Part shown: positions 1 through 14,125 of the stretch, in pieces
Numbering within the stretch: position 1 is the stretch's first letter
Layout of the letters: every line of letters starts with the position of its first letter
NCBI GenBank assembly: GCA_019057475.1
Contig: DXJO01000006.1
Span: 194,327 to 258,326 of the forward strand
DNA from: Candidatus Thorarchaeota archaeon
GTDB lineage: Archaea > Asgardarchaeota > Thorarchaeia > Thorarchaeales > Thorarchaeaceae
DNA: 64,000 bases
Direction: 5' to 3'
Translations under genes and position numbers: made by a program
Notes under the pieces: generated by a model
The model's database searches: none
What the model saw: only the letters and a program-made list of their open reading frames with translations
Told to the model about the DNA's origin: nothing

Positions 1-10
1 TGTCATCTTT

Positions 11-1018
11 CTAATCCTCCGTTATTTTGCCATCCCAATTCATCATAATGTCACCCACTTCGGCAATCATTTTCAGTCCCTTGGGTTCCCGATCAAACAT
101 TGGGATTACTGCACAAACATAGTTGCCCAATTCCTTCTCGATTTGAACCAAGTATTTTTGCTGCATCTCTATGCGTTCACGTAGAAAGTCGCCCAGGTCA
201 TCACGCTTGAGAAGTTCCCGAGGATAGACCTGGTTGACAACAACCCCAGTAAGGGTGATGTCCATCTGCGCAAACATATCCAGCGCACGCCTGGTGTCCA
301 AGATTGCCATCTTCTCTGGGACAATGACCATGTAGAACGCTGTTCTCTTGCTATCAGTAAGGAGGTCCTGGAAAAAGCCAAGTTTCTTACGGATTTCCTG
401 CAGCTCGTTAAGCATCTCATCTTGACCGGAAGCTGCTCCCTTCTGTTGAATTCGGTATGCAGAATCACCGTATTCTTGGGCCATTCTTCGCGTTTCTTCC
501 ATCTTGTCAATCCACATATCTAGTATCCGCGCCATTGATACCATTCTGATTCCGTGACCAAATGGAGGCATATCAAACACGTAAAAGTCGAATTCCTGAG
601 ACGCTAGAAGACCTGCCATGGCGTCGTAGGTGGCTGACTCGTGCATCGCCGGTTCAGCTGCGGCTGCAGTTATGTACTCATCAATCTCTCTTGGAATCTC
701 ATCGATTCCGTACATGTCCTTGATCTTCTGGCGAATCTCTTCCTGAAAGATGGCTATTCGCTTATCAGCGTCTATCTCCATTACATACAGGCTCTCTTGT
801 AGCTCCTGTCTACCCTTCCCAAAGATGTCTTTCTCGAAGATATCGGATAGCGACGCCTGCGGATCGGTACTGAAGCAGAGAGCCCGCCGACCCTTCTTTG
901 CCAGCCAAGATGAGAGGGCAGCGCTGCATGTTGTCTTGCCCAATCCACCCTTGCCGGCGAACACTGCGATTTTCGTATCGTGATTAGATGAATAATAGTC
1001 ACTCATTTTCGAAGTCAT
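11..1018 (-). CDS. ArsA/GET3 (TRC40) family P-loop ATPase, single domain
   Basis: Deviant Walker A GKGGLGKTT, STDPQASLSD (switch I), DMPPFGH (DTAPTGH-like), VVVNQV. No CxxC motif. Confidence 0.92.
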   Translation of the reverse strand: MTSKMSDYYSSNHDTKIAVFAGKGGLGKTTCSAALSSWLAKKGRRALCFSTDPQASLSDIFEKDIFGKGRQELQESLYVMEIDADKRIAIFQEEIRQKIKDMYGIDEIPREIDEYITAAAAEPAMHESATYDAMAGLLASQEFDFYVFDMPPFGHGIRMVSMARILDMWIDKMEETRRMAQEYGDSAYRIQQKGAASGQDEMLNELQEIRKKLGFFQDLLTDSKRTAFYMVIVPEKMAILDTRRALDMFAQMDITLTGVVVNQVYPRELLKRDDLGDFLRERIEMQQKYLVQIEKELGNYVCAVIPMFDREPKGLKMIAEVGDIMMNWDGKITED

Positions 1019-1066
1019 AATGCCTCACCTCTAAGTATGAATGCTGGAACTAGTGGACCAGCTACC

Positions 1067-1369
1067 TTAGAACAATGCGTCAGTGAAATCACGTTCCTTG
1101 AATAGAGACCGTTTCCAGGTCTTGATATTCGGAACTGCATACGGTAACAGTTTCAACGAGTAGTACGGAGGAAGGATGGGAATACCCAACATGTCTCCCA
1201 AGGTGATGAGCATAAATAAGTGTTCGAGATACATACGAGTCTTCAAGGCGTACCGCGTCATACCTTGCATTGCCATACCATAGAAGAAGTCCTTCACAGC
1301 TTCCTTTGCACCGCCCCTTTTCTTATCAGGGGCATCCTTGTCTTTTTTTTTCCCCATAGGAACCACCAA
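1067..1369 (-). CDS. Small CstA/ArsA-associated protein (cory-CC-star-like), paralog 2
   Basis: Core LFMLITLGDMLGIPILPPYYSLKLLP; clearly paralogous to 1563..1871; lies between cstA and the ArsA-type gene. Confidence 0.75.
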   Translation of the reverse strand: MVVPMGKKKDKDAPDKKRGGAKEAVKDFFYGMAMQGMTRYALKTRMYLEHLFMLITLGDMLGIPILPPYYSLKLLPYAVPNIKTWKRSLFKERDFTDALF

Positions 1370-1562
1370 TTGGTCGAAAGCTGGGAAACCTATATCTGTT
1401 GTGATACTTTTGGCGCTGTGGAAATATCAACCTTGATGCATGAAACCAATAAATCTCTTCATGTTCTTGCGCTATCATGAGCATGTAGGACGCCATTAGA
1501 TGCTGGTATTCATGCTTTGAACTGGTTCATATTGGGGCGTTTTTCTGTAAGGTCTATGTTGC

Positions 1563-1871
1563 CTATTCAAACATTCTGTCAAGCATGTCCCGCTCCTTTA
1601 ATACTCGTCTTCGCCAAGAAAAAAATTGCGGAAGCAGGTGCACCAAGACTATTCGAGAGTAATATGTCGACAAAGTGGGGTACCCCAGCAGGGTGCCCAG
1701 GGTTATAAAGATTAGAGCATTGTCGTAGTGCGATTTCGTCTTTCTGAGAGGCTCTGCAAGACTCAGCTTCTGAGCCTGCCAAATGCCGGCTAAGATTGCT
1801 CTTATCGACTTAGTTATCCGCAAACGAGTGTCATCCATGTAACCTATAGAGCATCCGCCCAATAAACGCAT
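1563..1871 (-). CDS. Small CstA/ArsA-associated protein, paralog 1 (true start probably the second Met, MDDTR)
   Basis: LIFITLGTLLGYPTLSTYYSRIVL...WRRRVLKERD aligns with the neighbour's LITLGDMLGIPILPPYYSLKLL...WKRSLFKERD. Confidence 0.72.
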   Translation of the reverse strand: MRLLGGCSIGYMDDTRLRITKSIRAILAGIWQAQKLSLAEPLRKTKSHYDNALIFITLGTLLGYPTLSTYYSRIVLVHLLPQFFSWRRRVLKERDMLDRMFE

Positions 1872-1907
1872 GGGTCATGCGAATGAAGCTTCAAGCTTGA
1901 AGGCTGT

Positions 1908-1970
1908 AAAGGGAAAGAAAAAAGGGAATGCAGATCCGGCACCCATGATTGACACGGACACCGGATTGCA
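1908..1970 (-). terminator. Hairpin plus pyrimidine tract downstream of cstA
   Basis: tgcagatccgg (1929-1939) pairs with ccggattgca (1961-1970); followed on the minus strand by TTCCCTTTTTTCTTTCCC. Confidence 0.5.
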
Positions 1971-2017
1971 CTCGTTGAGAGGGACTTGAACGTCTAGGCT
2001 TTTCTGTTGAAATGCTC

Positions 2018-3799
2018 CTATGCTTCAGTCTCTCCTATTGGGCCACGTTTCAACGCCGCCCAAGCGTCCACGAACACCAATACTCCGAGTATGATCAGGA
2101 TGACTGTAATTCCAATAAATGTAACAGTCAACGCCTGAGCTGGCAAGATGTTCCCTGCTGCCGCCGCGTCTCCAATCCAGCTCCCAGCCCTAGCGTAGTA
2201 GTACGGCGCAGTGGTGAGCGCTCTTACGAAGACCCAACACTCCCATACGAGTGCAGCCAAACAGGTTACAATCATGAAGAGTGCAGGAATCAACGTGTAG
2301 TGCGTTGGCTTCTTGGCGCGTGCTAAGTAAACAGAACCAAGCATTAGGCAAAGACCTGCGAGCAGTTGGTTGCTTCCACCGAATAGCAGCCAAATGTGAT
2401 ACCAAGCACCAGTGGCCGCGAAGATGAATGCAATGAGACAACCAATGAAGGCGCCTATCCATTTATTCCTGAACAGCGGTGCGATTGGTGAAGTACCAGC
2501 AAGGTCAGCGGCTGCCATCCTAAAGAATCGCGGCATCAATTGCAGTACGGTGATGGCATACAGCTCCAGTACCATTGCAAAAAAGGCAATAAGAATCACG
2601 CTTGACACTGCTGACCCACCAAATAGACCTTGGGTAAGGATTGTGGCACCCACTGGGAAGTTGACGAACCATGCCGGGCTCAAGAGAGCGGGATCTATCA
2701 CGACGTAGGCGGACAGGGCTGACATCGCGAGTAGCCCCTCAACGAACATCGAACCGCCAGCTACAGGCAGAGCATCCACTTCAGACATTAGTTGCTTTCC
2801 GGTTGCGCTGCTGCCAACTAAGCTATGCCAGCCAGAAACAGCACCGCATGCAATAGCCACAAAGAGTATTGGCCATATCGGACCGTTTGCCTCGGTAAAG
2901 AGCGTGATGATTGGCGCTGTATGAACTACGACCGGATCTGCAGGGTAGAGCATCACTGTGAATGGACTTAGCAGCGCACCCACAATGATCATGATCACAG
3001 CCACGAAGCAGGGCCAGAAAGCCACGTAGTTTACCGGTTGTGCCCATTCAGTGATGGGCAATGTAGCTCCGAAGTACACAAGGATCAAGGCAACTACAAT
3101 CCAAAGCTCTACTGGTGTAGTAGCAATCCAGCCAAGAGCGGCTATACCTGCAGGTGCGGGTAGATAGAGCCACAATCCCAGCCAAATACCTACAACCATG
3201 AAGGCCAGCCCAACTAATGTCGAGATGACGATGCTTAGCTTCATTCGGTAGAGCAGGATTCCGCTAACGAAACCGCCTATGATAACCATAATTGTTGGGA
3301 CAATGCTCTGCGGAAACGCCCTGAAGAAGGCACCACAGATGTACGCAAAGACTGCCATAACCAAAATCAAGTAGAAGATGATAAAACCCATCAAACCCTT
3401 ACGGGCTCGAGCGCCGACCATTCGGTAACAGATGGGACCGAACGATTCTCCTTCGCTTCGAACTGTAATCATAACAGCTGTGTAGTCATGAATCCAACCT
3501 ATGAAGAATGTGCCGAATATTATCCACAAGACTGCTGGAAGCCAACCGAAGACTAATGCTATGAACGGTCCGCTGATGGGACCGAGCGCAGCAATAGATT
3601 TGAATTGGAACCCAAAAAGAACGCTCTTGGATGTTGGGAAGAACTCCACTCCATCCATATACATATGAGCGGGTGTTTTCACTTTTTCATCGGGCCCCCA
3701 CACGGTCCTATCTACAAACCTAGCGTACATCCAGTACCCTACTATGTAAATGACCAAGGCGACGCCGACAAAGATAGCCGGAGAAGTCACATATACCAC
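2018..3799 (-). CDS. cstA: Carbon starvation protein A (CstA) family transporter
   Basis: TPAHMYMDGVEFFPT, FKSIAALGPISGP, IACGAVSGWHSLVGS and WLLFGGSNQLLA motifs; many transmembrane helices. Confidence 0.95.
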   Translation of the reverse strand: MVYVTSPAIFVGVALVIYIVGYWMYARFVDRTVWGPDEKVKTPAHMYMDGVEFFPTSKSVLFGFQFKSIAALGPISGPFIALVFGWLPAVLWIIFGTFFIGWIHDYTAVMITVRSEGESFGPICYRMVGARARKGLMGFIIFYLILVMAVFAYICGAFFRAFPQSIVPTIMVIIGGFVSGILLYRMKLSIVISTLVGLAFMVVGIWLGLWLYLPAPAGIAALGWIATTPVELWIVVALILVYFGATLPITEWAQPVNYVAFWPCFVAVIMIIVGALLSPFTVMLYPADPVVVHTAPIITLFTEANGPIWPILFVAIACGAVSGWHSLVGSSATGKQLMSEVDALPVAGGSMFVEGLLAMSALSAYVVIDPALLSPAWFVNFPVGATILTQGLFGGSAVSSVILIAFFAMVLELYAITVLQLMPRFFRMAAADLAGTSPIAPLFRNKWIGAFIGCLIAFIFAATGAWYHIWLLFGGSNQLLAGLCLMLGSVYLARAKKPTHYTLIPALFMIVTCLAALVWECWVFVRALTTAPYYYARAGSWIGDAAAAGNILPAQALTVTFIGITVILIILGVLVFVDAWAALKRGPIGETEA

Positions 3800-3984
3800 T
3801 TCCTCTCTGAGAATGTCCCGTTATGAAACATCCCGAATTATGTGAGCGTTTTATAATACGAAACTTGACCTTAAGTCTAGCGGTAACTGGATTTCCATAG
3901 CTATTAGTGAGCAAATAACCACATTTAGCACAAGAATATGCTTTGGAGCAATAGGAAAATCAGCTGGAGAAGCTCTTTGCTGGC

Positions 3985-4647
3985 TCAAGACTCGTGTCCG
4001 TGGCACAGAACTGAATTCAATGAAGCAACTAATTTGTTAGCATTCTCAAGAATCATTTTAGAAGATTGTGACTTCCAAGTGAACGTTAGAAGCCTCCCGG
4101 TTTCTTCACAGGGAATGTATCCTTCAAGATTAGCAATAGGTATAGGTCGTCCTATAATCCCGAAACGGCGTCGATAACCGGTCCAAAGCGCATAGCTTCC
4201 AGCATGATTGCCTGCATGTAGTTCACCATGCTCAACGACCTCCCGATCCTTCTTTGTATGACGTGTTAAGAGGTCCTCGGGTGTAGGTGCAATTGGTCCT
4301 AGCTTCTGCAAGTCCACAACTACCCTCAATGTGAAGTCGAGGTTGGGTCTGCTCGCCCCATTTCGCTGACTAGAGATGAGACACTCAGTTTCCCCAGTTC
4401 CCACCCAAATCTTATTCTTATAGAGAAACCGATTAGTGACTAGGGGTTCGTCTAGCTGATAGCCGGTCATCCACGACTCAGGTACGCGAATGTAGTTGAA
4501 TAATGCACGGCCAAAGAATATGTTCCATGCTTCGATTGCGATCTCGCGCGTCCCATTGTCCTGCTTATTGGCATCGTTTGGCATGAATGCGCCCTCAATT
4601 GGTGATGAGCCCCTTGTTATATTCGTTGTGCAGTTCTCGGCTGCCAA
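3985..4647 (-). CDS. Hypothetical protein, possible PsbP/Mog1/DcrB-like fold (start probably MPNDA)
   Basis: Long ORF co-oriented upstream of cstA; RVPESW, CEETGRLL and C-terminal SLNSVLCH patterns. Fold call is tentative. Confidence 0.6.
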   Translation of the reverse strand: MAAENCTTNITRGSSPIEGAFMPNDANKQDNGTREIAIEAWNIFFGRALFNYIRVPESWMTGYQLDEPLVTNRFLYKNKIWVGTGETECLISSQRNGASRPNLDFTLRVVVDLQKLGPIAPTPEDLLTRHTKKDREVVEHGELHAGNHAGSYALWTGYRRRFGIIGRPIPIANLEGYIPCEETGRLLTFTWKSQSSKMILENANKLVASLNSVLCHGHES

Positions 4648-4675
4648 TTTCGTCGGATATCCTTAAAGGGAGGAT

Positions 4676-5407
4676 GTGGGGTCACGAGAACAACACTACG
4701 CAACTAGTTATCGCCTGAGGTTAGAGCTGATGCAAGACATTGAAACCGTTGGTCTCTACATCGTGATGGGACTTGGGGTTGTATTGATTTGGATTTGGAT
4801 GGCAGGCCGGATGTCCACCAAGAAACTCCGCAACAAGATTGCCCAAGACATTGCTACGCGCTTTCAATCGATAACCTCCAAGGTCAGTGTGAAGCTCCTC
4901 GGGAATACGGGAGTCAAGTTCGCACTTCACCAAAAGGCGAAGAGCTCATTCTCTAAGCTGGAAGCAACAGTCCTGCTCCTTGATCGTTCCAACGCATTCC
5001 ATATGCTCTATTGCAAGGTCCGCCATCGAACTGATCAGATTCAAATCCGAGGGAGTCTTAAGGAAAAGCCTGCTATCCGGGTTGAGATGGCATCTGCCAA
5101 CGAGAAGCAGAACTTGGATGATACACTTAAGGATCAAGCCAACAACCTCAAGGAGTTCAAGGTAGAGTACCTAGCTGAGTGGCTCTATATTCTCACAAAT
5201 GATACTGGGGATGGAGCTGATTTCTTCGACCAATCAGATGTAAGTGCAGCTTTCAAGGAAGCAGCACAATACTTGACCCGTATATCTATTGCTCCACGTG
5301 AACCTCACCTCTTTATCTCAGCGGTGCTTGTCCCACAATCTGTGGAGCCAATCGAGCGGCTTACTCTCTCCATCGCAAAAGGAGTCCGCAAGAAGAATAG
5401 AAAATAG
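4676..5407 (+). CDS. Single-pass membrane protein with CCDC47/DUF1682-like soluble domain
   Basis: N-terminal TM helix, then GRMSTKKLRNKIA...LEATVLLLDRSNAFHMLY...RTDQIQIRGSL. CDS is likely real; family call is an inference. Confidence 0.6.
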   Translation: MGSREQHYATSYRLRLELMQDIETVGLYIVMGLGVVLIWIWMAGRMSTKKLRNKIAQDIATRFQSITSKVSVKLLGNTGVKFALHQKAKSSFSKLEATVLLLDRSNAFHMLYCKVRHRTDQIQIRGSLKEKPAIRVEMASANEKQNLDDTLKDQANNLKEFKVEYLAEWLYILTNDTGDGADFFDQSDVSAAFKEAAQYLTRISIAPREPHLFISAVLVPQSVEPIERLTLSIAKGVRKKNRK

Positions 5408-5639: not shown

Positions 5640-6029
5640 CTATGTGTAGTGTTGTTTAGTTGCCGGTTGATGTAGATAGAAGATGATGAAGAGGCTTATG
5701 AGAGCGCCCCACCATTCATCGCCAACCAACCAGAGCGGTATTCCGATTATGTTCAGGATGAAAGCATATTGCCAGAACTTGCTCTCAATGTTATACAAAC
5801 CCAATGCAACCCACAGGCTAATCAATCCAAGAAGCAGTCCAATGCCTGCTGCTACGAGATTGATTGTGCCCCAGACTTCACCCTGGTACCATAGTATGGT
5901 ATCTGCGTAGGCGAGGTTTATGCCTCCGACTATGATTCCCGCTAGTCCATTTACAGCCACCAAGATACTTACCCAGGTTACTTCACTAGGCTTGCCTGAC
6001 GGCGTTCCAGTAGTTCCTTCTTCTGCCAT
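5640..6029 (-). CDS. Small multi-pass membrane protein, function unknown
   Basis: About four hydrophobic segments; GGAG upstream of the start. Confidence 0.75.
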   Translation of the reverse strand: MAEEGTTGTPSGKPSEVTWVSILVAVNGLAGIIVGGINLAYADTILWYQGEVWGTINLVAAGIGLLLGLISLWVALGLYNIESKFWQYAFILNIIGIPLWLVGDEWWGALISLFIIFYLHQPATKQHYT

Positions 6030-6166: not shown

Positions 6167-9100
6167 TCAATATGCTCTTCGCCTTCTGAGCACAACTGCT
6201 ACTATGATAACCACCACGACGACGCCCATAATGATGATTATGACAATGGTCATGTCAATGGGTGGGATAGGTGTGGTGGGTTCACTGACTGTGACGAGCT
6301 CTGTATCACTTGAAGAGAGTCCGTGCTCATCCGTCACAATCAAGGTATAGCTGTACGTGCCGGAATCTAGTCCATCAACTGAGATGGAAATTACTTCTGA
6401 ACTAGAGTTCCACGGACCCGATCTAACAACGGTGCCATCTATCGAGATCTCATAGCTTGCTGGAAGCGCGTCTGTTGGATGCCAAGTGATAGAGTTGCCA
6501 GTTTCGCCTAGCGTGTAGTTGATGTCTTCAGGATGGTCGATTTCTGGCGGCAGAGTGTCCTGAACACTTACAGAGAACGTGCCGCTCAATGTGTTCCCCA
6601 GAGTGTCGTTCACCCAAATATGCAGACCGTATGTTCCCTCTTCAAGGCTTACTATGCTGGTCACAAGACCATCTGCACTGACAGCGAAGCGAACCGTATC
6701 ATTCAGCCACCATGTGCTGATGCCCGAAGGATCGATTGCCGTCAATCCGTAGCTGAGGGCATGACCAAGCTCTACGTTCTGATCGGTGGGATCTTCAGCC
6801 CAGACTGGCGCAGTCGTGTCATAGGCAGGAAGGAGGTTGGTTTCGGTGATGTAGCCCTCCATGGGATTTAGTGGGTCATCCGACCTGATGTATACGAGCA
6901 TTCCTGTTGGTCGAAGAGCATACGCCGTCATCATGTGTTCCTCGTTGCTGAGAGTCCACACAGCATAACCTTCGTATATTGTGGATCCATCTACGAACAG
7001 GAGATCGTTCCACGCGAAGAACGGTGCGGCATCGCCCATGTCAGCGAACGAACCGATTACTTCTAGACTTTGTAGACCTGAGAAACAGAAGAAGTGCATG
7101 TGATCCCAGCCCATATCAGCAAATGGAATGTACCCATTGAGCACATTGACAATCATCCCGAATTCGCCAAGCATGATTGTCCCGCTTTCATTGTACAGGT
7201 GTATCGTCATCGAAACATTCACTTCAAACTCAGAGAGCCAATCGCCAAAGGTGAAGTTCATGTCCTCCGTGTACAAGTCTGTTTCAATACGCCAGTTGAC
7301 ATAGTCACCTGGATTCGGAAGGGCGATTGGAACCACATCAATGGAATCGACTGTGACCGTGGCATTGAGAGTTGTCAGGTCCCACCAGAATGCCATCAAC
7401 AAGATTGTGTTTGTACCATTCTGAAAGACTGGGACAATGAGATCCGAATTGCCCGTCGCGTTCCAGAGTGACGTTATGAATTCACCATTCACAAACACGT
7501 GAATTTCTTGTAGGTTCTCCGAATCTGAGGCGTCGAACTCAACGTACACCTGACCTCCGAAAACAGTCGCCCCAATGGTTGGCGTAACGATAAAGAAGTA
7601 CGTTCCGCCCACGCTCGGAAGAGCCGTGGCGACGTTGTTGCCGGTGAAGGGTTCACCAAGAACTGGTTCAGCATACGCAGTGATGTTGTAAGTCCTCATC
7701 TCAGTCGGTATCCAAGGATAGCTTAGCACATAGGACTCGTAGGAGTTCAACTGTGGGATGGTCACTGATGAAACCAGGGCGTCATCGATGTAGAGGCTGA
7801 ACGCAACGCCAACCTCGTCTGACGTTCCCAAGTTGGTTACTGTGGCGTCGATAATGAACAGAGTGTCCACGGGAAGTTCCGAGGGCACATTGAGAGAAAC
7901 TGCGAGGTCATGCTCGTAGGCATGATATGTGAATCTAAGAGCGAAATCGGTGACTCCTTCAAGATCGTCATCGAGATAGTTATTGTAGTGAATCCCGTCC
8001 CCGTGATTGAGTCCAACAGTTGCGGAGAATACATTCACAATCTCAAGGTAGTTGAACTGGATTAGGCCATCCGCATACAGTACAACCTCGAACGTTCCAA
8101 GAAGTGACCCTCCTAGGTGATCATAGTTGTCAAACTGTATTACCGCCCAGTCTGCGGTCACCCACGCATAGACATTGTTGTCCGCCCACAAATCATCCCA
8201 GAACGGAGCCAAAGCATATGCGAAGTCTGGGTCGGCCGATGGAAATTGCGGGTTGCTATACTCCCGCGGATCGGGGTTGCTGAAGGAGAGCCAACCGTTA
8301 CTGCTGATATAGACTGTATCAAAGGTCCCATCGTAGAATCTAAAGTTAAACGGTAGTGCAACACTGGTATACACATCATCACCATTGAGATACAGATTCT
8401 CGCCGTTGGCCTTCGCATCCAACCATGTCGCAGATCCTTCCTCCATTGTGTAGTCATGTAGCTCACAGATTGAAACCAGCCGTGTGGCAGCATTGTTCCC
8501 GGTATTCTCATCATCTGGCTTAGGCGCGACGTAGGCAGTCACATTGTATGTGCCTTCAAGAGTCGGTGTCCATAAGTAGGAGAGTGTCTGGCTAGTGCCA
8601 TTGGCGAGCTCAGAGATGAACAATGAGTCGACCTCAATGTCGTCAATGAAGAGCTGGAGCAGAACATTCGTTTCAATATTCAAGCCAGTGTTGAAGGCCG
8701 TAGCATTCAGCAAGACTGAGTCACCTGGGCTGAGGCGCTCTGGTGCTTGAAGACCAGCAGCCAAATCATGGTCATAGATGATGGGAATGTGCAGTAGGAT
8801 ATTCTCAAGGATGCGACTGCTACCGTTTTCAAAACCATATTCTAGGGTCTGTGTGGAAATAACTATAGCTCCGGCACCAAAGCGAAATTCAATAAGCGCT
8901 GGATAGTCGGGTTCAGCCACAAGAATGATGTCTGCTCCTGCAGGAATGCTGTCAAGATAACCGTATACTGACCACCACCAGTTATCCAACTCCGCATCAG
9001 TGATCAGATTAGGGTTCAACAGTATAGGATGTACGGGGTTGACAATACTCACCACATCACCGTAGAACGCAACATAGGTAGGTCCACCAGGAATCATGCC

Positions 9101-12100
9101 ATTGACCCAATATGAGTCTGTAGCTGCATGTACCTCCAGTATGCCTCCTTGGGATGCATAGTCCTCGAACCAGTCCAAATTGCTGTAAACAGCCTCCATG
9201 AAGGCTGAAGGCTGTTCGGATGCGATTACGACCTTCTCATATGGAGAAAGATCTACAGAACCAATGTCCGAACTCAAGAAGATGTCATAGCTTATGCCCC
9301 AAGCCGTAAGAATATCTCTGATAGCGGGAGAACCCCACGGATCCCAAACCTGGAAGACCGCAACAGGTCCGGTTATCGCTATTTCAAAGACCACAACCAT
9401 CGAGGTCACACCATTGTTGGTGATGCTCGCCTCGTCGGGCACGGGGGCTGCGTAAGCAGTCACGTTATAGACATCCTCAACAGCGGGGGTCCATGAGTAG
9501 GAGAGTGTTTCACTCGTACCATTGTTGAGAGTCGGAATGAGAAGTGAGTCTACCTCAATACCGTCGATAAAGAGCTGGAGCAGAACATCTGTTTCGCTAT
9601 TTAGCCCGTAGTTCGAGACCGTGGCATTGAGTAGCGTCGAATCGCCTGGATTGAGGTGACCTGGCGCGTCCAGCGCGACACTAAGATCATGCTCAGGAAT
9701 CTCGTAATCTGACCACTGGAGCGCATTGTAAATGAACTGGATATCCGCTGTGCTCGACCAGTACTCCGGTATATGTGAGCAATAGGCAAGTCCCCGATGA
9801 GTGAGTACAGCTCCATAATTCTGACTAGATACATCCAATGCTTGGTATGACGCGCCATTAAGCACGGAGGAGTCCCAACCAGAGCTCTGTGGATGGAACG
9901 ACATTCCACCGTAGCCCACTCCATAAGGAGTGGACATTCCCTGGAAAATGGGATGAGCAAGGTTCAGGATGTCGAAGTCAGTTATGCTATCCGCGGTGTA
10001 TGTGATGGAATCAGCTAGTCCATAGAAGGAAGCTAGATCCTCTGCATTCATAGGCATTGAAGAACTTGTCGACAACAGTCCATGTCCCTGCCGGACGTAA
10101 TTCATGATTGCGTCATTTTGCTCGGTAGTGTATGGGTCATAGACATGGGACAAAATCAGAACGTCCGCATTGAAATCTTCAAGGGCCTGAAGTGTGAAAT
10201 CGGGCGCGCTAAATGTCGTGTAGTCGATGAATATCGGAACACTCCCATAAGATTGCCAACGGAAATTGATCTCATCCCAACAGCAGTAATCAGGGTAAAT
10301 TGTGCCGAAGCCGTATAGAACCGCAGCTGTGATGCGAACAGGAATGTAACCGGTGAAGTTGATATGCCCAGTCAGATTGGCCTCAATTGAGATTAGTCCA
10401 CCTACAGTAGGAGTCAAAACGAAATCAATCAAGCCTGATGAGTTTGTGTAACCCGAATCGGCAACACCACAGCCAATGAGATTGATGAAACAATCTTCAA
10501 GTGGGCTACCCTCATAGTAGTCACTGGCAAAAACAGTTAGCGCTTGCGTTTCTTCTTTCATCAAGTAGATCGGGTCCGTGTCAAGATCAACTATTGGTGT
10601 ATCATAGACGATGATGCCCGTTGTGCAGTTCAGGAAACCTGACTTCATGATGTTGACTTCAATGATTCCCTCCGTACTGGGATTAATGAAAATCGTGCAG
10701 GTTCCGTCGACAGAGGTATGATTCGACGCAGAAATGCCGCACCCATCAAAGGTGACATGGGCATTGGGAATTGGTGTGCCGTTCGCACATTCAACCACAT
10801 CAATGGTGATTGTTTCCGAGGTTCCTGTTCTCAGGGCGTCATCGGAGAGTGTGGCCATCAAGCTTGGATATAGAAGGAAAGCGGCTGAGTTCTTGATGAG
10901 TTGACTTCGGTATTCTTGGCTGCCAATGGCATCAATTGAAAACCCGATGAATACAACCCCACCAAACGTGATTGAGGTTAAGGGTGACAGAGCTGAAATC
11001 GCACTATCGCCAGTGAAGCTGCCGCTGTAGCCACCGACATGCATTGATCCATTGGTTGGACTGAATACATCCGCGTACGGTGAACCCAGTCCTCCAGCCA
11101 ACGGAATGGTTGCTGGTAAACCTGAGGTAATGGGATGCGCTCCAGTCTCAAGGTTCAGACTGCCAGAATTGGTGATATGTTGATCAAATTCGACATGGAA
11201 TAGACTCGGGAAGATGGCTCCGTGCTCAGCATCCAGAGTGTTCAGAATGCTGCACCCTTCGAACAGAAGGTTGCCGCCGTTATTGTGGTAGTCAAAGAGT
11301 ACATCCAGCAGGTAGCTATTCGGAGCAACCAATGGATATCCGTAGTTATCACCAACCGAGACAACAACTATGTTATACAAATCCAGTAGAGAAAGGCTAG
11401 GAGTTGAGTTCCATCGAGGATAATAGATGGACACGTTGTACTCCTCGTGGAGCGCAACATAGAAGTCGGCGTAGTTCGTTGAGTCGCCAGCATTGTCGTC
11501 CACCCAACCACCGGGATATGATGGGCCCCACTCACCGGCGTCATCTGCGATTACTAATACATCACCTCGCTTGACTTGAAAGAAGACTTTATCGCCTCCA
11601 TGATGAGTGCCATTGTCAGCCTCGATGTATAAACTGAGCATCCCGAAACCAGTGACGTTGATGTCAGACGAGAATGCCCCGGAGGTGATGGTGAATACCT
11701 TCGTCTGAAGTACGCTGCCCTGTGCATCGAGAAGATAGGCAGTGCCGGAACCGTCTTGATCTGATGTACCGCTGAAGTCAAGAAGAGCATTATAGATAGG
11801 TGCGGAGTCTAGACCCACAGCGACATTGAGGCTTCCAACATAGAAGTCGGTCAACGTTGTACGCACGAATGGATTGTGTACTGTGGTTTCTACCGTGTAA
11901 CGCCCGGGATACTCGTTGACATAGAAAGTGGCAGTGTATTCACCAAGGACATTGGTTGCGAGGGCATCGTCATAGACAATTGTGCCAAAGGGGTCTTTGA
12001 CGGTGACATTTACAGTTCCTACTATGGGGGTGTTGTTGTAGAACAAGCTACAGGTGCCATCGAGCTGAACTTCCTCATCAGTTTCAACTGCTGAAGCTTC

Positions 12101-14125
12101 AGTTGTGACGTTATGCTTCCAATAGAATTTGAATGTAGGATCACCAAAGTAGATAGACTGATAGACTGTTTCCAAGCTAACTACATTTGTCATGTCGAAT
12201 GTCGTAACAACCTCGTACAATGCCGTCTGGAAGGCTTCTTTGGGACTGGCGGTCTGCTGGTCCAGCGCATCTTGAAGAAAATTATTCCAGAAACGATGGT
12301 GGAATCCATCGAAGGCATGATAACCGGCCCACGCAATTCGTGTGGCACCGATGTAAGCAATCGCTCCACCATTCGTAGCTCGGAAGAAGGCCTCGCCTAT
12401 CGTCGGTTCTATGCCTTCGACGTCGAACGCTGCGGTTTCGCAAGCCATTGCAAAGGCAAGGAAACTCATGTTGCCATTATCCAAATCAAGGGCTTCAGAG
12501 GCGTATAGGGAATCCACCCACTGGTCATAGGCTCCGTGATCGAAGAAGTCTACTAGGCTAACTCCCGCATTGATCCGGTCAATCGTTGCCTGATGAGACA
12601 GCGAGCCGTCTGTTGGGTAGAGCCGGTCAACCTCAAAGAACGAGTCGTAGAGAAACCTCTGATTTATCTCTTCTTCAACCATGTTGGCTCCATCGCCGCT
12701 ACCGAAGCAGTCGGGAGCAATTAGGAGGAAGTCATCCATCCAGTCGCCAAGAACAGGATTGCTTTCGAATCGAATAATAGAAGCACATACTTGCTTTGCT
12801 TGTTCAGGAGTCTGAACAGGAAGTCTGCCGACCATTACTTCTGGGAACAGGTCTACGTTATCTTCAAGCTCGCCATAGAGCCCGTTGTCATTAGCATCCC
12901 AGTCCCCATCTAGGCACTCGAAGTAGAAGTCGCTTGGTTCAGTACCGTTATCGAGCCCTGCACCGGCGTTCTCCGGATCCCATACCTCGCGAGTCGGTAC
13001 GATATCGCAATCGCCAACAAGCAAGTAATACTCGGTCCCCCTATCGTGGTACGTCGCGTTGATGAAATCGCGTACCTGCTCTGCATGGTCGTCCCCAGAA
13101 TACCATGCGTAAATGTCCTGCACTGTTTCTATGGTGACATTGAAGCCAATATCTGTCTTCCAATCCACGAAATCCTCCAATGCAGTTACAAACGTTTCAT
13201 CAGCAATGAGGATATAACCTTCGCCGTTGTCGAATGACGGTCCGAAGGATGTTGAAGGATTGATGAAATCTTCGGGTGAGATGGGCACATCGAATTGAAT
13301 CTCAACAGTCAATTGGATAGCAAGCAGGCCCTCCTTTGTGGTTGGATTGTATCGGAGCGGACGCAGTGTCATGTAAAGCCCCTGTTCGTCACCCATATTC
13401 ACGATATCGGTTTCAATGACATTATCTGGTGCAAACGTAGCCAAAGCGTAAGCATCTGGATCAAGGAAAAGCCCTTTCAGAGATCCCAGTTGATTTGAAA
13501 CTTGCAGTGGTTCAGGCCCCGGAATGATTCTAAGTCCATTAATGGACTCGAACATTTGGTCACGAACCTCAATGGATTTCACATTGGCATAGTCAGGGAT
13601 GGAGAGCATTATGTTTCTGTATGGCAGTGTTGGGCGTCCGTGATCCTGGCTGAGCTGAGTGTTTGGAACTACTAAGCTTTGAAAGACACCTTCTTCAAAA
13701 GAGTACGTGATTGTGCTGTAGCTACCAATTGAAACATCAACGTAGAGAGTGTCACCTGCAACCTCATAGCGAATGTCCATGCCAGAGCCTGCGTCTTCGT
13801 ACAGGCGTGTTTCCCAACGTTGAATGCCCTCTGCGGATTGCCTGTAAGGCGCTAGCATGTCGCGGGAGTCAAACCAGTTGTTTTTTTCGTCTAGACGATA
13901 CCAGTCATCGTCGGTGCTTGACGGTTCCTTTGAGCTCAATGGCTGAGCGCGGTCTTTGGTTGATGACGATACAAATGAGTCATCAAGTGTATTGAGTTGT
14001 TTAGTTATGCCCTCCGTTGAGTTTCCAGATGGAAAATAGCTGGAAAATGGCACGGTTAGCGGCGGTACAAAAAGCAAAGAGATCACTGCCAGACACAGCA
14101 GTTTGGAAAGCAAATCGGTCCTCAT
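6167..14125 (-). CDS. Giant membrane-anchored C25 (gingipain-type) cysteine peptidase with Ig/CARDB, GATase1-like and nidogen-like modules
   Basis: Signal peptide; propeptide (GRPTLP); YYLLVGD, SDFYF, VGRLPV, catalytic DHG and ACET; three HDL-initiated CARDB-like repeats; C-terminal TM helix plus RRRR. Confidence 0.9.
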   Translation of the reverse strand: MRTDLLSKLLCLAVISLLFVPPLTVPFSSYFPSGNSTEGITKQLNTLDDSFVSSSTKDRAQPLSSKEPSSTDDDWYRLDEKNNWFDSRDMLAPYRQSAEGIQRWETRLYEDAGSGMDIRYEVAGDTLYVDVSIGSYSTITYSFEEGVFQSLVVPNTQLSQDHGRPTLPYRNIMLSIPDYANVKSIEVRDQMFESINGLRIIPGPEPLQVSNQLGSLKGLFLDPDAYALATFAPDNVIETDIVNMGDEQGLYMTLRPLRYNPTTKEGLLAIQLTVEIQFDVPISPEDFINPSTSFGPSFDNGEGYILIADETFVTALEDFVDWKTDIGFNVTIETVQDIYAWYSGDDHAEQVRDFINATYHDRGTEYYLLVGDCDIVPTREVWDPENAGAGLDNGTEPSDFYFECLDGDWDANDNGLYGELEDNVDLFPEVMVGRLPVQTPEQAKQVCASIIRFESNPVLGDWMDDFLLIAPDCFGSGDGANMVEEEINQRFLYDSFFEVDRLYPTDGSLSHQATIDRINAGVSLVDFFDHGAYDQWVDSLYASEALDLDNGNMSFLAFAMACETAAFDVEGIEPTIGEAFFRATNGGAIAYIGATRIAWAGYHAFDGFHHRFWNNFLQDALDQQTASPKEAFQTALYEVVTTFDMTNVVSLETVYQSIYFGDPTFKFYWKHNVTTEASAVETDEEVQLDGTCSLFYNNTPIVGTVNVTVKDPFGTIVYDDALATNVLGEYTATFYVNEYPGRYTVETTVHNPFVRTTLTDFYVGSLNVAVGLDSAPIYNALLDFSGTSDQDGSGTAYLLDAQGSVLQTKVFTITSGAFSSDINVTGFGMLSLYIEADNGTHHGGDKVFFQVKRGDVLVIADDAGEWGPSYPGGWVDDNAGDSTNYADFYVALHEEYNVSIYYPRWNSTPSLSLLDLYNIVVVSVGDNYGYPLVAPNSYLLDVLFDYHNNGGNLLFEGCSILNTLDAEHGAIFPSLFHVEFDQHITNSGSLNLETGAHPITSGLPATIPLAGGLGSPYADVFSPTNGSMHVGGYSGSFTGDSAISALSPLTSITFGGVVFIGFSIDAIGSQEYRSQLIKNSAAFLLYPSLMATLSDDALRTGTSETITIDVVECANGTPIPNAHVTFDGCGISASNHTSVDGTCTIFINPSTEGIIEVNIMKSGFLNCTTGIIVYDTPIVDLDTDPIYLMKEETQALTVFASDYYEGSPLEDCFINLIGCGVADSGYTNSSGLIDFVLTPTVGGLISIEANLTGHINFTGYIPVRITAAVLYGFGTIYPDYCCWDEINFRWQSYGSVPIFIDYTTFSAPDFTLQALEDFNADVLILSHVYDPYTTEQNDAIMNYVRQGHGLLSTSSSMPMNAEDLASFYGLADSITYTADSITDFDILNLAHPIFQGMSTPYGVGYGGMSFHPQSSGWDSSVLNGASYQALDVSSQNYGAVLTHRGLAYCSHIPEYWSSTADIQFIYNALQWSDYEIPEHDLSVALDAPGHLNPGDSTLLNATVSNYGLNSETDVLLQLFIDGIEVDSLLIPTLNNGTSETLSYSWTPAVEDVYNVTAYAAPVPDEASITNNGVTSMVVVFEIAITGPVAVFQVWDPWGSPAIRDILTAWGISYDIFLSSDIGSVDLSPYEKVVIASEQPSAFMEAVYSNLDWFEDYASQGGILEVHAATDSYWVNGMIPGGPTYVAFYGDVVSIVNPVHPILLNPNLITDAELDNWWWSVYGYLDSIPAGADIILVAEPDYPALIEFRFGAGAIVISTQTLEYGFENGSSRILENILLHIPIIYDHDLAAGLQAPERLSPGDSVLLNATAFNTGLNIETNVLLQLFIDDIEVDSLFISELANGTSQTLSYLWTPTLEGTYNVTAYVAPKPDDENTGNNAATRLVSICELHDYTMEEGSATWLDAKANGENLYLNGDDVYTSVALPFNFRFYDGTFDTVYISSNGWLSFSNPDPREYSNPQFPSADPDFAYALAPFWDDLWADNNVYAWVTADWAVIQFDNYDHLGGSLLGTFEVVLYADGLIQFNYLEIVNVFSATVGLNHGDGIHYNNYLDDDLEGVTDFALRFTYHAYEHDLAVSLNVPSELPVDTLFIIDATVTNLGTSDEVGVAFSLYIDDALVSSVTIPQLNSYESYVLSYPWIPTEMRTYNITAYAEPVLGEPFTGNNVATALPSVGGTYFFIVTPTIGATVFGGQVYVEFDASDSENLQEIHVFVNGEFITSLWNATGNSDLIVPVFQNGTNTILLMAFWWDLTTLNATVTVDSIDVVPIALPNPGDYVNWRIETDLYTEDMNFTFGDWLSEFEVNVSMTIHLYNESGTIMLGEFGMIVNVLNGYIPFADMGWDHMHFFCFSGLQSLEVIGSFADMGDAAPFFAWNDLLFVDGSTIYEGYAVWTLSNEEHMMTAYALRPTGMLVYIRSDDPLNPMEGYITETNLLPAYDTTAPVWAEDPTDQNVELGHALSYGLTAIDPSGISTWWLNDTVRFAVSADGLVTSIVSLEEGTYGLHIWVNDTLGNTLSGTFSVSVQDTLPPEIDHPEDINYTLGETGNSITWHPTDALPASYEISIDGTVVRSGPWNSSSEVISISVDGLDSGTYSYTLIVTDEHGLSSSDTELVTVSEPTTPIPPIDMTIVIIIIMGVVVVVIIVAVVLRRRRAY
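8490..9695. repeat. Two internal CARDB-like repeats with DNA-level similarity (about 8490-8772 and 9410-9695)
   Basis: Shared strings aagagctggagcagaacat and agtaggagagtgt; protein HDL..L.AP..L.PGDS.LLNAT occurs twice. Confidence 0.75.

Follow-up and report, generated by a model that had tools for sequence, protein, structure and literature searches.

We analysed a window of 64,000 nucleotides from Candidatus Thorarchaeota archaeon (contig DXJO01000006.1), at the left end of which lie genes for a CstA-family permease, two small CstX proteins, a pair of Get3-like ATPases (A1 and A2) and two further proteins with the folds of CCDC47 and PsbP. The core of this locus is the cstA-cstX-arsA module described by Castillo and Saier in 2010 (Int J Microbiol 2010:187373, PMC2963123). 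We tentatively read it, with slightly less than even confidence, as one dedicated ATP-switched nutrient importer rather than a general membrane-insertion machine. All six genes proposed in a preliminary description of the window, including the divergent pair, were recovered as open reading frames at their proposed positions. The ATG at position 6, in which that description saw the start of a further operon gene and possibly a second ATPase, lies 4 bases past the stop codon of A1 and indeed begins the second ATPase, A2. The features are arranged as follows:

1..6, minus strand: start of the A2 ATPase (336 amino acids; L001:11323-12333), which runs leftward out of the window on contig C29
11..1018, minus strand: A1, a single-domain ATPase of the Get3/ArsA family (335 amino acids; TIGR00345)
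1067..1369, minus strand: CstX2, DUF7990 / cory-CC-star-like, with a probable ATG start at 1357 and a conserved central hydrophobic hairpin
1563..1871, minus strand: CstX1, a divergent paralogue of CstX2, of which close relatives have one or two copies
2018..3799, minus strand: CstA-family permease (about 590 amino acids; GTG start at 3799 or 3790; PF02554)
3985..4584, minus strand: soluble PsbP/Mog1/DcrB-fold protein (199 amino acids), divergent from the gene at 4730..5407
4730..5407, plus strand: tail-less CCDC47-fold protein (225 amino acids) with one N-terminal membrane helix

Castillo and Saier listed 26 cases in which CstA is accompanied by an ArsA homologue and named two further proteins: CstX, a small protein of ~90 amino acids, and CstY, an archaeal protein of ~210 amino acids with a single membrane segment. 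In Pyrobaculum arsenaticum and Symbiobacterium thermophilum (cluster 15) they noted two ATPase genes side by side, and in Pyrobaculum a duplicated CstX. They found no arsenic genes in cst operons and hypothesized that CstA is energised by the ATPase, to which CstX would link it (PMC2963123). The locus described here shares with their module CstA, the duplicated CstX (as in P. arsenaticum), two adjacent single-domain ATPases of ~336 amino acids and the absence of ars genes. The two small genes, already suspected of being paralogous, are 40% identical over 58 amino acids (E 4e-15). Each of the two ATPases shares 46% identity with its S. thermophilum paralogue and falls into a clade with it (support 100/98 and 100/99), and in S. 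thermophilum (L167) a CstX homologue, 59% identical, lies directly upstream of the ATPase pair. The locus differs from the published module in carrying a PsbP-fold gene with conserved Cys and His, a downstream CxxC gene, and a CstY-like gene in a cluster-15 setting, CstY having been reported only with ArsA cluster 14 (PMC2963123). The 225-residue CCDC47-fold protein fits the description of CstY in size, topology and linkage, the comparison being with that description only. The term “uncharacterised”, as first applied to this locus, does not hold in the sense of undescribed, since the 2010 paper already presents both the core of the module and the energising/linker hypothesis. That study contains neither the catalytic asymmetry, the CCDC47 fold nor a physical model, and nothing was tested at the bench in it. 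The module as a whole appears untested at the bench, because only one paper in the searched literature (PMC2963123) names CstX together with CstA.

The neighbourhood survey that the preliminary description had called for covered the best 79 CstX loci in genome contigs, 28 of them archaeal and 51 bacterial; these are the most query-like ones, and many lie on short contigs. It revealed wide co-occurrence in archaea and bacteria, with one or more ATPases at 76 of the 79 loci and CstA at 71. The CCDC47-fold gene was found at 28, of which 21 are archaeal and 7 bacterial, and the PsbP-fold gene at 13, of which 12 are archaeal and 1 is bacterial. A1 is followed by A2 at all 75 loci having both full-length genes, and cstX keeps its place immediately upstream of A1 also at loci with an inverted or displaced cstA. 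Thorarchaeial relatives keep the seven-gene order, with the CCDC47-fold protein at ~45-50% identity; in other archaea the genes are rearranged yet still clustered. Within the Asgard archaea the module is patchy, and it is not specific to them: the CstX marker was detected in 17 of the 301 Asgard genomes searched and in none of the six congeners searched (52-92% complete).

The two ATPases score well above the TIGR00345 cut-off of 135 bits (A1, 218.5; A2, 214.5) and are 28% identical to each other. A1 retains the catalytic Asp52, the switch II Gly154-His155 and the client-groove helices, and it has no metalloid-binding Cys; across 84 sequences its switch I Asp and its switch II Gly-His do not vary. 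In A2, the switch I Asp is replaced by Asn (N53) and the switch II Gly by Ala (A159), each replacement being present in 98% of 79 sequences, while the signature Lys and the full deviant Walker A motif are kept. Neither protein contains a CxxC motif. Because A2 has lost both the catalytic Asp and the switch II Gly, its site is predicted to be non-hydrolytic, and we infer, on the basis of the established chemistry of SIMIBI ATPases, that A1 and A2 form a heterodimer with a single hydrolytic site. In Get3, the equivalent switch I Asp (D57) positions the attacking water (PMC10248533).

In the ATPase phylogeny, which contains no eukaryotic rows and carries a midpoint root for drawing only, A1 and A2 form sister clades (99/96) that are separate from true ArsA and from standalone Asgard Get3-like proteins. 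Each of the two clades spans archaea and bacteria. The closest solved relatives of both proteins are archaeal Get3 homologues (3UG6 and 3ZQ6), and their alignment to 3UG6 runs without the gap seen with ArsA. The pair shares with Get3/TRC40/ASNA1 and these homologues the fold, the deviant Walker A motif, the long groove helices with their insert, a Met-rich groove on the A1 side and, as predicted here, the capture of a helix in that groove. However, Get3 is a homodimer whose subunits each have an intact catalytic site and which has a CxxC dimerisation motif, whereas A1/A2 would be a heterodimer with one degenerate site and no CxxC. Furthermore, the clients of Get3 are diverse C-terminal anchors, whereas the partner of A1/A2 would be a conserved, dedicated CstX with a central hairpin.

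CstX1 and CstX2 match the cory-CC-star family (NF041419) weakly, and relatives of both carry PF25952 (DUF7990). The Pfam scan returned no Asterix-type match, no Asterix profile having been part of the search, and no match to YbdD-type families was found. The earlier description of the two as small hydrophobic partners stands as far as they are co-directional paralogues; they are, however, only moderately hydrophobic, with best 19-residue Kyte-Doolittle windows of 1.56 and 1.26. Since this hydrophobic segment is central and of moderate strength, the sequences indicate that the CstX proteins are not tail-anchored. Some Thorarchaeia (L026:6219-6482, L027:6480-6743, L118:13294) have an extra CstX2-like gene ~5 kb away on the opposite strand, together with two copies of CstX1.

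The interface check suggested in the preliminary description was run in part, on the ATPase pair and one of the small proteins, and it predicted an A1/A2/CstX2 interface. Three runs gave an ipSAE interface score of 0.63, whereas the controls scored 0.00, 0.00 and 0.39; the contact agreement was at least 79%, and the partner had a predicted local distance difference test score (pLDDT) of 61-65. In calibration, 58 of 80 solved complexes reached the mark, as did 2 of 110 mismatched pairs, a guide that is only rough for a job with three chains and its own alignments. Contacts involve residues 88-132, 155-180 and 198-213 of A1 and residues 98-131 and 160-178 of A2, in helices that correspond, by alignment to 3UG6, to those of the Get3 client groove. 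CstX2 is thus predicted to sit in a Get3-type groove of the pair, which residues 34-81 (numbered from window position 1363) fill in the model. The predicted groove is hydrophobic, with seven Met on the A1 side. At the interface, 24 of 44 positions in A1 and 27 of 42 in CstX2 are at least 90% conserved, above their neighbours. Independent support for CstX in the groove is provided by gene adjacency and by the CstX hairpin, a Pro-Pro-Tyr-Tyr one, which is nearly invariant from Asgard archaea to bacteria.

The permease itself matches PF02554 (E 1.5e-95) and has at least 13 hydrophobic segments; no solved structure matches it by sequence. Its substrate is probably peptides or a small carboxylate, as judged from its family. 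The locus has in common with the E. coli pyruvate/peptide importers CstA-YbdD and BtsT the permease family, and with the former a small partner, YbdD being needed by E. coli CstA (PMC5847655). Those systems include no ATPase, however, and the present CstX and CstA stand apart from their E. coli counterparts, the one matching no YbdD-type family and the other falling far below the equivalog cut-off.

In the mechanism that we propose, transport would be carried out by CstA, and the A1/A2 heterodimer would hydrolyse ATP at the A1 site only, with A2 binding nucleotide and supplying a trans lysine; the motifs are observed and the activities would follow from them. The hydrophobic hairpin of CstX2 would be held in the groove where Get3 takes up tail anchors, and CstX, with its conserved hairpin so held, would act as a fixed coupling subunit rather than as variable cargo. 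The opening and closing of the ATPase would then gate, activate or energise CstA through CstX. The CCDC47-fold protein may be an optional membrane-anchored accessory that binds CstA and stabilises or assembles it, by analogy with TtfA and MmpL3, and the PsbP-fold protein an optional cytosolic accessory that probably binds metal. The closest mechanistic template is ArsA of the ArsAB pump, likewise a pseudo-heterodimeric ATPase coupled to a secondary carrier; here, by contrast, the metalloid Cys are absent, the ATPase is split into two genes, the carrier is unrelated and there is an extra coupling subunit. The preliminary description had the ATPase and its small partners energise, gate or assemble CstA. 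Joint action of the ATPases and the small partners on CstA is indeed probable.

Several points weigh against an ATP-switched importer. Solved Get3-client complexes exist, from which the predictor may have learned to put any hydrophobic helix into such a groove, so that a pass of the complex may show likeness rather than specific binding. The unrelated controls are not necessarily hydrophobic, and the job, in its three chains and alignments, was unlike the calibration. The conservation of the interface is confounded, since inward-facing helix residues are conserved anyway. The CstA protein scores 133 bits against the E. coli CstA equivalog cut-off of 1188, so that the family gives no more than a probable substrate. 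The closest characterised relative, E. coli BtsT, is an H+/pyruvate symporter (PMC7730263), so that CstA-type carriers need no ATPase. Finally, the same data suit a dedicated chaperone role.

Such a role is the main rival explanation, and we consider it unlikely, if a serious contender. The ATPase pair would form a private version of the GET route, shielding CstX, or else helices of CstA, and delivering it to the membrane, where the CCDC47-fold protein would help to assemble CstA; the ATPases would take no part in transport once the transporter is built. The predicted position of CstX in a hydrophobic, Met-bearing client groove suits this explanation, as do the archaeal Get3 homologues that are the closest solved relatives of both ATPases, some archaeal homologues being known to bind tail anchors (PMC6593721). 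The fold of CCDC47 is, in addition, that of a chaperone for multipass proteins. However, no CCDC47-fold gene was found within the fetched flank at 44 of the 51 bacterial module loci, and a hairpin that hardly varies between Asgard archaea and bacteria suits a permanent subunit more than passing cargo. To our knowledge, most CstA carriers, such as that of E. coli, are built without helpers of this kind.

The label “CCDC47-like” given to the 225-residue protein holds by fold. Its model (pLDDT 95, from a 72-sequence alignment) matches rabbit CCDC47 with a Z of 18.9 and a root-mean-square deviation (rmsd) of 2.6 over 217 aligned residues (Foldseek E 6.3e-10), and fungal CCDC47 with a Z of 16.5. 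The third-best match is mycobacterial TtfA (Z 12.3, rmsd 3.6, 155 aligned), and the next unrelated row has a Z of 7.0. The likeness to CCDC47 is homology beyond a shared fold, because 23 of the 72 family members match Pfam CCDC47 (PF07946; best E 3.3e-08); the window copy has no match of its own. As in CCDC47 (7TUT/7TM3 chain 4, 9I78 chain 4), one N-terminal membrane helix is followed by the same globular domain. The identity is only 11-12%, however, and the protein differs in lacking the lumenal N-terminal region and the C-terminal coiled coil and in being linked to CstA. The alignment is limited to CCDC47 residues 135-399, with the end of the protein, after a final helix at 202-224, falling at CCDC47 residue 399; the coiled coil with which CCDC47 reaches the ribosome and Sec61 is not present.

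A single-sequence scan of genome contigs with this protein found nothing and profile searches were needed, by which the family was detected in 109 of 301 Asgard genomes. Bacterial matches that resembled antisense artefacts held on a recheck with the original profile (E 6e-33 or better). At 32 of the 40 Asgard CCDC47-fold loci fetched, no module gene lay within ~8 kb. The Pfam CCDC47 cut-off was passed by 3 of 10 standalone Asgard proteins and by 0 of 10 module-linked ones. The window copy, the sole one in this genome, clusters in a tree of prokaryotic proteins with the module-linked rather than the standalone Asgard ones, the deep branches being weak, and in the Thorarchaeial family the gene was found in 5 of 76 genomes, always with the module. 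This distribution suits an accessory of CstA resembling TtfA rather than a housekeeping PAT complex. TtfA is a proven transporter accessory (PMC6593404): it has a related fold (6T84), is membrane-anchored, binds MmpL3 and is needed for its activity. At 6-9% identity and with an unrelated transporter family, it serves as a functional analogy only. Standalone Asgard homologues of CCDC47 include L071:8104-9030 (+), L096:8293-9003 (-) and L078:8013-8714 (+), a type that this genome lacks, and the standalone group of L071, L072 and L079 has a long Lys/Glu-rich C-terminal tail. The standalone proteins are better candidates than the window copy for the ancestor of eukaryotic CCDC47.

These observations bear on the proposal, made in the preliminary description, that relatives of the eukaryotic GET and PAT pathways are united in this one Asgard locus. 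As ancestors of a general membrane-protein insertion system, they would be represented by a Get3-family ATPase adjoining a true CCDC47-fold protein, whose family includes the Pfam CCDC47 matches given above; prokaryotes are said to lack PAT components (PMC9630114). We nevertheless regard the proposal as very improbable and unsupported. The genome encodes a separate ATPase on contig C42 (L111:1483-2481, minus strand) with canonical switch motifs, a CxxC and 24 Met, which scores 202.5 bits with human ASNA1 (phmmer) against 91 for A1 and 79 for A2. Its best solved match is Chlamydomonas ArsA1 (5ZME, 411 bits), and a search with it returned Asgard proteins only, among the matches listed. By sequence, A1/A2 are not the closest Get3 relative in this genome, and the C42 protein is the best candidate for tail-anchor targeting. 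The CCDC47-fold protein, for its part, is tail-less, aligns to residues 135-399 of CCDC47 only, groups with module-linked proteins (with weak deep support) and travels with CstA in archaea and bacteria. The scarcity of the CstX marker among Asgard genomes and congeners, and the constant company of the module in the Thorarchaeial family, also speak against a general machine.

Finally, an arsenite or antimonite efflux ATPase split into two genes is exceedingly improbable, even though A1 and A2 are homologous to ArsA (27% identity) and an Acr3-like gene exists elsewhere in the genome. The residues aligned to C113, C172 and C422 of E. coli ArsA are Ala, Glu and Ala in A1 and Ala, Ser and Ala in A2. 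Neither protein has the two domains in one chain that characterise ArsA, and their scores with TIGR04291 are 95-98 bits against a cut-off of 650. In the ArsA/GET3 phylogeny proposed earlier, the ArsA clade excludes the pair (100/99 support), which does not group with metalloid-activated ArsA. No match to ArsB or ArsD was found anywhere in the genome; the Acr3-like gene (contig C42) and an ArsC/low-molecular-weight-phosphatase-like gene (contig C21) both lie off the module contig. This agrees with the arsenic-free cst operons of Castillo and Saier (PMC2963123) and bears out two initial claims, that the ATPase is not an arsenite pump and that the locus has no arsenic efflux pump or reductase gene.

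The PsbP-like label likewise holds by fold. The model of the 199-residue protein (pLDDT 76) matches CyanoP with a Z of 11.2 and an rmsd of 3.5 over 141 aligned residues, and the top 18 structure matches (Z of at least 8) belong mostly to the PsbP/Mog1/DcrB superfamily. No signal or membrane segment was found in its sequence. H127, C159, C194 and H195 are invariant in 29 homologues, and these four residues possibly form a metal site, as suggested by the model, because the open ends of one β-hairpin carry H127 and C159.

Accessory proteins rich in Cys are a recurring feature of the surroundings of the module. Outside the window, ~400 bases downstream of A2, L001:10571-10927 (minus strand) encodes a 118-residue protein with a conserved C-terminal CPxC and no Pfam match; its gene follows the module in Thorarchaeia, and in a second Asgard family (L103, L106) it lies within modules whose gene order has changed. 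It is possibly an eighth component. A CxxC protein of ~125 amino acids, thioredoxin-like in appearance, recurs beside the module at L130:5128-5511 (minus strand) and at ~18 other loci of archaea and bacteria, and was not found in this genome. The 118-residue protein is not detectably its relative (hhalign probability 0.8%).

Within the window, positions 5640-6029 (minus strand) encode a hydrophobic membrane protein of 129 amino acids with weak family matches, which is not recurrent beside the module. Positions 6167-14125 (minus strand) encode a secreted, C-terminally anchored protein of 2652 amino acids, the N-terminal part of which resembles gingipain/C25 peptidases by eye. Such a large surface peptidase may have a bearing on the adjacent locus, a putative importer of peptides, but no conservation of this neighbourhood was observed. 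Rab-like small GTPases are encoded by two tandem genes (L001:3471-4082 and 4051-4659, plus strand) ~8 kb to the left of the window. A scan for sigma-70 promoters and terminators, a model unsuited to archaea, gave counts at chance level. Four metatranscriptome assemblies from one study contain contigs of a related strain, 90-99% alike, that cover cstA, cstX2 and A1 as well as a small part of the gene for the CCDC47-fold protein. With their small word share, these contigs show neither transcription nor co-transcription and were not used as evidence.

None of the papers searched contains the asymmetric ATPase pair, its predicted partner in the groove or the prokaryotic CCDC47, while the core of the module and the main hypothesis have been known since 2010. 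In the searched literature we found no paper connecting CCDC47 with Asgard archaea, and the family is treated as restricted to eukaryotes (PMC9630114), whereas a prokaryotic member is present here. Taken together, a LeuT-fold CstA made ATP-driven or ATP-gated by an asymmetric Get3-like heterodimer, with a permanent coupling subunit held in its groove and a prokaryotic CCDC47 scaffold, would be an undescribed class of transporter, a prospect that we consider doubtful in this full form. What most prokaryotic Get3-like ATPases do has yet to be settled (PMC6593721). With its defined partner, its predicted interface and the asymmetry built into its active sites, the module can be tested directly, including in cultured carriers such as Symbiobacterium. 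If such a transporter class exists, it would give prokaryotic Get3-like ATPases their first defined function, and the core of CCDC47 would have been a transporter accessory before eukaryotes.

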